A stretch of 210 bases of DNA from Escherichia coli. Lineage in GTDB: Bacteria; Pseudomonadota; Gammaproteobacteria; Enterobacterales; Enterobacteriaceae. Under the pieces are notes generated by a model that did no database searches, had not been told where the DNA came from, and worked only from the letters and a program-made list of their open reading frames with translations. Positions 1-210 of the stretch are shown here, in pieces (the stretch's first letter is position 1; every line of letters starts with the position of its first letter). Made by a program: the position numbers and the translations under genes. The stretch lies in the NCBI RefSeq assembly GCF_003334785.1, contig NZ_QOWV01000096.1, one strand, 5' to 3'.

Positions 1-29
1 AGAAAATATCCGGCGGGTTCCGGAGCGCC
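1..29 (-). terminator. Candidate rho-independent terminator for the reverse-strand gene
   Basis: Plus 9-13 tccgg pairs with plus 20-24 ccgga (5-bp GC-rich stem, 6-nt loop cgggtt). An alternative stem is 12-15 ggcg with 26-29 cgcc. Read on the minus strand, the hairpin is followed directly by tattttct (reverse complement of plus 1-8), six T in eight. The stem is short and the T-tract is interrupted, so this is a marginal call. Confidence 0.35.
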
Positions 30-61
30 AGTCTGTAGGTTTATCCATCAATAGAACTCCG

Positions 62-100
62 TCTAATTTAGAAGGAGCTCTAATTTAGTCTGCAAGGAGC
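62..100. repeat. Imperfect tandem direct repeat: tctaatttag + aaggagc, then tctaatttag + tctgc + aaggagc
   Basis: Exact 10-bp tctaatttag at 62-71 and 79-88; exact 7-bp aaggagc at 72-78 and 94-100. The second unit carries an extra tctgc (89-93). Seen directly in the sequence; biological role unknown. Confidence 0.6.
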
Positions 101-210
101 AGGTGTTACAGACGGCATTGGCTTTACGCTTACTTTCATCTCCAGCTTTTCCAGAACAAGCTTTCGCAATGGTAAATTTTGATCCAGTAAGCACGGTTTT
201 GGCCTTTTCG
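63..210 (-). CDS. 3' end of a protein-coding gene, truncated at the window edge; hypothetical protein, Lys/Ala-rich C-terminus with three Cys
   Basis: Reverse-strand ORF with codons running from plus 209 down to 66 and a TAG stop at plus 65-63 (plus-strand cta). Visible translation: EKAKTVLTGSKFTIAKACSGKAGDESKRKANAVCNTCSLQTKLELLLN*. The frame is open at the window edge, so the 5' end is outside. Supporting: a hairpin plus T-tract lies about 38 nt downstream on the same strand, and plus-strand alternatives lack a correctly spaced start codon. Against: no homology recognised, and other frames are also open over much of this span. Confidence 0.45.
   Translation of the reverse strand, partial: EKAKTVLTGSKFTIAKACSGKAGDESKRKANAVCNTCSLQTKLELLLN

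Follow-up and report, generated by a model that had tools for sequence, protein, structure and literature searches.

The stretch of DNA considered here (210 nucleotides from Escherichia coli, called the window) is the junction of two unrelated mobile elements, with the boundary at 133/134. The left end of an IS66-family element, read on the minus strand, carries an inverted repeat over the translation start of its first gene, tnpA. This repeat is kept among related elements with compensatory changes, and folding predictions indicate that it would be stable as RNA. The original prediction drew attention to two AAGGAG words on the plus strand. Neither of them serves any gene as a ribosome-binding site, and both are located on the antisense strand of the IS66-family leader. 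The 5' arm of the inverted repeat contains the complement of the first word, and we consider it probable, from modelled folding and by analogy with other insertion sequences, that this arm takes part in a leader hairpin which occludes the tnpA translation start in the mRNA.

Junction of two mobile elements

The features of the window are located as follows.

1-133, read on the minus strand: left end of an IS66-family element (ISEc47-like).
1..48, minus strand, frame -1: tnpA (orf1), first 16 codons, MDKPTDWRSGTRRIFS, with the ATG at 48..46.
49-133, minus strand: untranslated left-end leader of 85 nt, between the terminal repeat (133) and the tnpA ATG at 48..46.
52..82, minus strand: leader hairpin or inverted repeat, with 5' arm UAGAGCUCC-U-UCUA (82..69), loop AAU (68..66) and 3' arm UAGA-C-GGAGUUCUA (65..52).
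57..60, minus strand: Shine-Dalgarno (SD) word GGAG of tnpA, 8 nt upstream of the ATG and inside the 3' arm of the hairpin.
72..77, plus strand: first AAGGAG, the complement of CUCCUU, which is the anti-SD part of the hairpin 5' arm.
80..82, minus strand: TAG ending the truncated IS30 transposase frame (frame -3 translation ...EMKVSVKPMPSVTPAPCRLN*).
94..99, plus strand: second AAGGAG, the complement of a second leader CUCCUU, in the loop of a small predicted CUGC/GCAG hairpin.
110..133, minus strand: left terminal inverted repeat (IRL) of the IS66-family element, 5'-GTAAGCGTAAAGCCAATGCCGTCTG, from 133.
134..210, minus strand, frame -3: internal fragment of the interrupted IS30 transposase gene, peptide KRPKPCLLDQNLPLRKLVLEKLEMK, cut by the IS66-family insertion.

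The name ISEc47-like follows the RefSeq naming. In DNA searches the window from position 1 to about 133-139 shows up to 100% identity with a multi-copy element. Thousands of E. coli chromosomes and plasmids carry this element, as do plasmids of Citrobacter, Klebsiella, Enterobacter and Salmonella. These matches all stop at one place, the tip of the insertion sequence, and their flanking contexts are varied, so the element is mobile and present in many copies. The genes tnpA, tnpB and one for an 'IS66-like element ISEc47 family transposase' are present in the copies with 100% identity to window 1-133. In one such copy (locus L001) all of them are on the minus strand; the tnpA product is named a 'transposase' and has 144 aa, and TnpB is assigned to the IS66 family. 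The set tnpA-tnpB-tnpC is found after the left end in the identical copies; the window itself contains codons 1-16 of tnpA only. The start of this gene is given by the RefSeq CDS L001 3114-3548, which maps to window position 48, and the frame -1 peptide of the window, MDKPTDWRSGTRRIFS, is the N-terminus of the annotated 144-aa protein. The full-length TnpA (144 aa) matches the Pfam domain HTH_Tnp_1 with E = 2.7e-10.

Read from position 133, the minus strand begins GTAAGCGTAAAGCC..., with the terminal repeat 5'-GTAAGCG at its tip. The GTAAGCG tip is common to about 40 IS66-family loci. The right end of the L001 copy reads ...CGCTTAC and is located about 2541 bp from the left tip. The right terminal repeat of this copy (IS ~2510-2541) has a short palindrome of its own, GCGTCAA-N12-TTGACGC, which ends at the IS tip.

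On the other side of the boundary, query positions 135-210 match IS30 with 100% identity in 3528 E. coli genomes. The junction was placed at 133/134 by comparing intact IS30, ...CCA|TTTCATCTCC, with the window, ...TAC|TTTCATCTCC. The IS30 transposase peptide KRPKPCLLDQNLPLRKLVLEKLEMK is interrupted just ahead of ...WSPEQ. The insertion follows the K codon of ...LEKLEMK and is co-oriented with the IS30 transposase gene. This particular IS66/IS30 junction is absent from 5,426 complete E. coli genomes and from the plasmids and phages in the collections searched.

The truncated IS30 frame (-3) continues into the IS66 leader for 17 codons, up to the TAG at 82..80. This stop codon coincides with the first bases of the hairpin 5' arm. 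It is a speculation that a ribosome stopping at this TAG could briefly open the hairpin, coupling tnpA to IS30 translation.

The predicted leader hairpin and inverted repeats in the IS66 family

The predicted fold of the hairpin consists of 13 pairs with one U/C mismatch. On the sense strand the 3' arm GGAGUUCUA is followed by UUG and then by AUG, and the base of the hairpin ends 3 nt before the AUG. The GGAG at 60..57 is the only SD-like word for tnpA. A sense-strand RNA of 66 nt has a predicted folding energy of -21.6 kcal/mol (z = -4.65), and none of 200 shuffled sequences is as stable. For a sense-strand RNA of 49 nt the values are -16.1 kcal/mol and z = -4.7, and the fold of 105 nt of the plus strand has a z of -1.43. 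The hairpin piece of this element has energies of -16.1 kcal/mol for the sense and -11.4 kcal/mol for the antisense strand.

The promoter scan of both strands of the window found no sigma-70-like site above the threshold. A weak candidate seen by eye (GTAACA, 16 nt, TAAATT) has 8/12 matches and is below the scan threshold. A search of Rfam at permissive E-values returned only chance-level matches (snoMBII-202 and ClpQY_promoter), far below the gathering score. The leader hairpin was not called in the terminator scan of the window, and the sole terminator-like site is located at 24..9 on the minus strand, within the tnpA coding sequence. This terminator-like hairpin, TCCGGAACCCGCCGGA then TATTTTCT, covers tnpA codons 9-16 and is absent in the tnpA of ISKox1. 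A long-range pair of the predicted MFE structure, GUCUGUA (113..107) with UACAGAC (37..31), was dropped from consideration because, by reading of the sequence, it is not conserved in ISKox1.

The inverted repeat is retained in the ISEc47/ISKox1 clade. The arrangement AGAGCTCC-N-TCTAA...TTAGA-N-GGAGCTCT is located directly before the ATG in ISKox1 (L003, L007, L008 and L086) and in L006, L009, L090 and L004, and the flanking leader diverges among the clade members that keep it. The tnpA SD position is occupied by GGAG or AAGGAG in the ISKox1-type relatives. The centre of the ISKox1 hairpin is flipped, so that its sense strand has AAGGAG as the actual SD, which accounts for the inverted orientation of the BLAST matches to this 30-mer in many Klebsiella plasmids. 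The arms CTTAGATGTCC/GGACATCTAAG of L011 contain adjacent compensatory changes. In an alignment of 12 sequences, 82% of the cells are standard pairs, as against 27-41% with slid partners. Changes on both sides are found in 8 of the 15 pairs, and one pair is split evenly, with CG in six of the sequences and GC in the other six. Judged from the alignment, compensatory pairing of this kind would also fit a DNA palindrome.

In locus L004 (E. coli plasmid pLKJULY7989), a group II intron at 3086-4961 (Rfam RF02001, RF01998 and RF00029) replaces the tnpA start and begins 4-5 nt past the 3' arm of the hairpin. An IS200 art200/STnc490 match at 4972-5095 adjoins this intron. Some bacterial group II introns target stem-loops, and the palindrome of L004 may have been the target of the intron. 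In L005 (3003-3400), a second IS66-family left end (GTAAGCGCTCC...) is located inside the ISEc47-like leader at CTAAAT|TAGA, within the palindromic words, and further GTAAGCG ends occur at ~3305 and ~3376. This suggests that IS66-family elements pile into one another's left ends.

The scan for tnpA relatives covered 100,044 species genomes and viral contigs and gave 152 loci. An inverted repeat is present at the tnpA start in nearly all of the approximately 50 distinct IS66-family leaders, from which 26 representative distinct hairpins were picked by hand. In about 24 of these 26 the SD or the start codon is inside the 3' arm, or the arm stops at most 6 nt ahead of the start codon. The family mean of the fold z for the same 26 hairpins is approximately -4.1. 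Enterobacterial ISEc8-like members have the repeat TGGTGTCCACCA-aatag-TGGTGGGAACCA, located 2 nt before the start, and beta-proteobacterial members have CTTGATGGTGTGCACCA-acaggaga-TGGTGCACACCATGAAG, with the SD in the loop and the ATG and second codon in the stem. The exceptions are L064 and L078, in which a 15-bp perfect palindrome is located just upstream of the SD, leaving the SD and start codon outside the repeat. The core GGTG-NN-CACC occurs in most clades and is common to clades with TnpA proteins only 30-40% identical; the ISEc47/ISKox1 clade has GAGCTCC/GGAGCTC instead. In the literature on IS66 regulation that was searched we found no description of this leader palindrome, and Rfam has no matching family.

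The beta-proteobacterial loci L044, L049-L052 and L067-L076 have, about 40 nt before tnpA, arms of 13-17 bp with a GGTGTGCACC/GGTGCACACC core. The SD of these loci, AGGAGA, is in a loop of 7-8 nt, and the ATG is inside the 3' arm. The predicted energies of these hairpins range from -24 to -28 kcal/mol.

Readings of the leader and of the AAGGAG words

If the repeat acts by occlusion of the tnpA start, a transcript containing both arms would fold into the 13-pair hairpin and bury the GGAG SD. The buried SD would keep tnpA translation low, above all for read-through transcripts from outside. In the window such read-through would come from IS30, and it is realistic because the element is co-oriented within the IS30 transposase gene. 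Several observations speak against the RNA hairpin. Among 52 distinct inverted repeats there are 13 G.U and 15 A.C mismatches, so that G.U is not the commoner one, and only 13 of the 26 hairpins are more stable on the sense than on the antisense strand (Wilcoxon p = 0.68). Since there is no strand-specific RNA signature across the family, selection could act on the DNA palindrome rather than on the RNA. The GGTG-NN-CACC core looks more like a protein recognition site, and in L064 and L078 the SD and start codon are just outside the repeat. In addition, a transcription start within the repeat would leave the 5' arm out of the mRNA made by the element itself, and no sigma-70-like promoter is present at the scan threshold.

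The same observations bear on a DNA operator, a possibility to which we give tentative weight. The inverted repeat would then be a palindromic left-end site bound by a protein dimer. The most plausible candidate for this protein is TnpA, an HTH protein, and its role would be autoregulation of tnpABC transcription or help in left-end recognition; AAGGAG/CTCCTT would be half-site sequence. TnpA, with its HTH_Tnp_1 domain, is encoded directly downstream of the dyad, and the GGTG-NN-CACC core is kept across distant clades. The repeats have neither a bias of G.U over A.C nor a difference between sense and antisense energies, the palindrome of L064 and L078 is outside the SD and start codon, and the words of the repeat occur at the left end of the element only, with none at the right end. 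All this is consistent with an operator. However, the arms of 15-18 near-perfect pairs in L051, L058, L064 and L070 are far longer than usual HTH half-sites, and the SD or the ATG, and even codon 2, are regularly part of the repeat. The outer arm sequences vary between clades yet remain complementary, which points to selection for the pairing itself. It is important to note that an operator and an effect of the RNA are mutually compatible, and the one does not exclude the other. A transposase-binding site used at both ends was considered as well and was rejected, as the repeat words are found at the left end of the full copy only.

An antisense RNA made from the plus strand in the manner of IS10 RNA-OUT or IS200 art200 appears unlikely. 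In this case a stem-loop at 57-77 displaying AAGGAG would pair with the tnpA start region. In its favour, either strand of the palindrome can fold, and IS10 and IS200 have known antisense regulators (PMC4513863). However, the scans found no plus-strand promoter-like site upstream of 57 and no plus-strand terminator, the plus strand of this element folds weakly (z = -1.43 for 105 nt), and no Rfam family matches.

The AAGGAG words themselves are exact at 72-77 and 94-99 on the plus strand, as the original prediction had it, and no other copy is present on either strand of the window. The count of 2 exceeds the 0.16 expected by chance, and only 2 of 200 dinucleotide-preserving shuffles reach it. 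The two words are not independent: the imperfect direct repeat TCTAATTTAG (62-71 and 79-88) is in each case then followed by AAGGAGC. This direct repeat with its AAGGAGC largely reflects the nested palindromic words, TTAGA/TCTAA being used in both the outer and the inner stem. The position of the second word reads AAGGAT in the closest relatives, L004 and L005, and the word is absent in the leaders of ISKox1, L006 and L090. Comparison of these leaders suggests that it is probably a non-conserved second copy of the same word, incidental and without a function of its own.

Plus frame 1 contains the two start candidates named earlier, GTG 103-105 at a spacing of 3 nt from the second word and TTG 118-120 at 18 nt, and the frame-1 translation from 103 does read VLQTALALRLLSSPAFPEQAFAMVNFDPVSTVLAFS. 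It also holds that nothing usable follows the first word, as no ATG, GTG or TTG is located 5-10 nt downstream of 72-77. The earlier view that the words are not working SD sites of the plus strand is upheld by the spacers of 3 and 18 nt, by the junction that the reading frame crosses, and by the AAGGAT of the relatives at the second word.

The original prediction had kept a coding plus strand as an alternative. The AAGGAG at 94-99 would then be the SD of a protein from GTG 103 (MLQTALALRLL...), or the end of the element would supply an outward translation start making fusions with the flanking DNA. In plus frame 1 there is no stop codon between 67 and 210, a stretch that includes GTG 103, but the spacer is just 3 nt. 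The reading frame spans the IS66/IS30 boundary at 133/134 and therefore cannot be a conserved gene, and from 134 to 210 it runs opposite to codons of the IS30 transposase. The nearest relatives have AAGGAT in place of the motif, ISKox1 lacks the motif, and the promoter scan found no plus-strand promoter-like site. This alternative is very improbable and can be regarded as effectively refuted.

The preferred explanation of the original prediction was a reading on the minus strand, in which the words are the antisense of codons for E-L-L and C-S-L. The minus strand is indeed the meaningful one, but the coding explanation fails, the leader at 49-133 being untranslated. A minus-strand protein at 63..194, with the words as the antisense of Leu-Leu and Cys-Ser-Leu codons, is effectively refuted by the junction mapping and has next to no probability: the 43-codon frame is present (frame -2), but it spans 133/134 and so covers two elements that are unrelated, and neither of the real genes shares its frame, the IS30 transposase being read in -3 and tnpA in -1. 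The annotation of thousands of copies leaves the leader non-coding, and the leader diverges by indels among relatives. The frame at 63..194 on the minus strand and the one from GTG 103 on the plus strand are chimeric artefacts, because both cross the IS66/IS30 junction.

Known insertion sequences and meaning for the family

Occlusion of the tnpA start by the leader hairpin can be compared with systems described for other elements. The stem-loop in the 5'UTR of IS200 tnpA has been shown experimentally to sequester the SD, block 30S binding and repress translation (PMC4513863). In both elements an inverted repeat of the left-end leader is located between the tip and the first gene, and the SD of the transposase is part of its stem. 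However, the two belong to unrelated IS families with different transposase chemistry, HUH for IS200 and DDE for IS66. The IS200 stem is longer (nt 69-138), and IS200 has an upstream terminator and an antisense sRNA, neither of which was found here. Repression in IS200 is an experimental result, whereas the IS66 hairpin is known here from the sequence and its predicted folding.

In IS10 and IS50, an upstream anti-SD word pairs with the ribosome-binding site of the transposase, and transcripts entering from flanking DNA are not translated. The resident promoter of these elements is located between the arms, and the element's own mRNA escapes. This fold-back inhibition of read-through transcripts was reportedly described by Davis, Simons and Kleckner in 1985 and by Krebs and Reznikoff in 1986, and is said to be covered in the 1998 review of Mahillon and Chandler. 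The window is similar in having an anti-SD word upstream, and the insertion sequence is here co-oriented inside another transcribed gene. It differs in the promoter, which is located between the arms in IS10 and IS50, while here there is only the weak 8/12 candidate found by eye below the scan threshold.

The IS1 protein InsA and the OrfA proteins of the IS3 family are small HTH proteins which autorepress by binding the left end. Their binding sites are the terminal repeats at both ends. The likeness to the present element is that its first gene encodes an HTH_Tnp_1 protein with a palindrome directly upstream; the difference is that this palindrome is internal and at the left end only, and that the binding is putative. 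The leader hairpin can thus be likened in its working to IS200 and to IS10 and IS50, and it may work like InsA and OrfA. These are analogies, and the hairpin is homologous to none of these systems.

The AAGGAG observation is real but ordinary in meaning and belongs to the usual biology of mobile elements, and the family-wide palindrome is a modest by-product of following it. A short window can straddle nested mobile elements, and the reading frames and SD-like words read across the junction are then artefacts.

IS66-family elements are abundant on virulence and resistance plasmids. To our knowledge, the function and regulation of IS66-family tnpA have been little studied. It is possible, although we would put it forward with some doubt, that the family has a deeply conserved left-end palindrome, abutting or covering the tnpA start, of dual purpose: an operator for TnpA and, once transcribed, a hairpin occluding the translation start. 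The principle is already known from IS10, IS50 and IS200, and it is extended here to IS66 and not overturned. The inverted repeat over the tnpA start gives a testable handle on low transposase expression and on resistance to outside transcription, and the palindrome may point to what the HTH protein TnpA binds.
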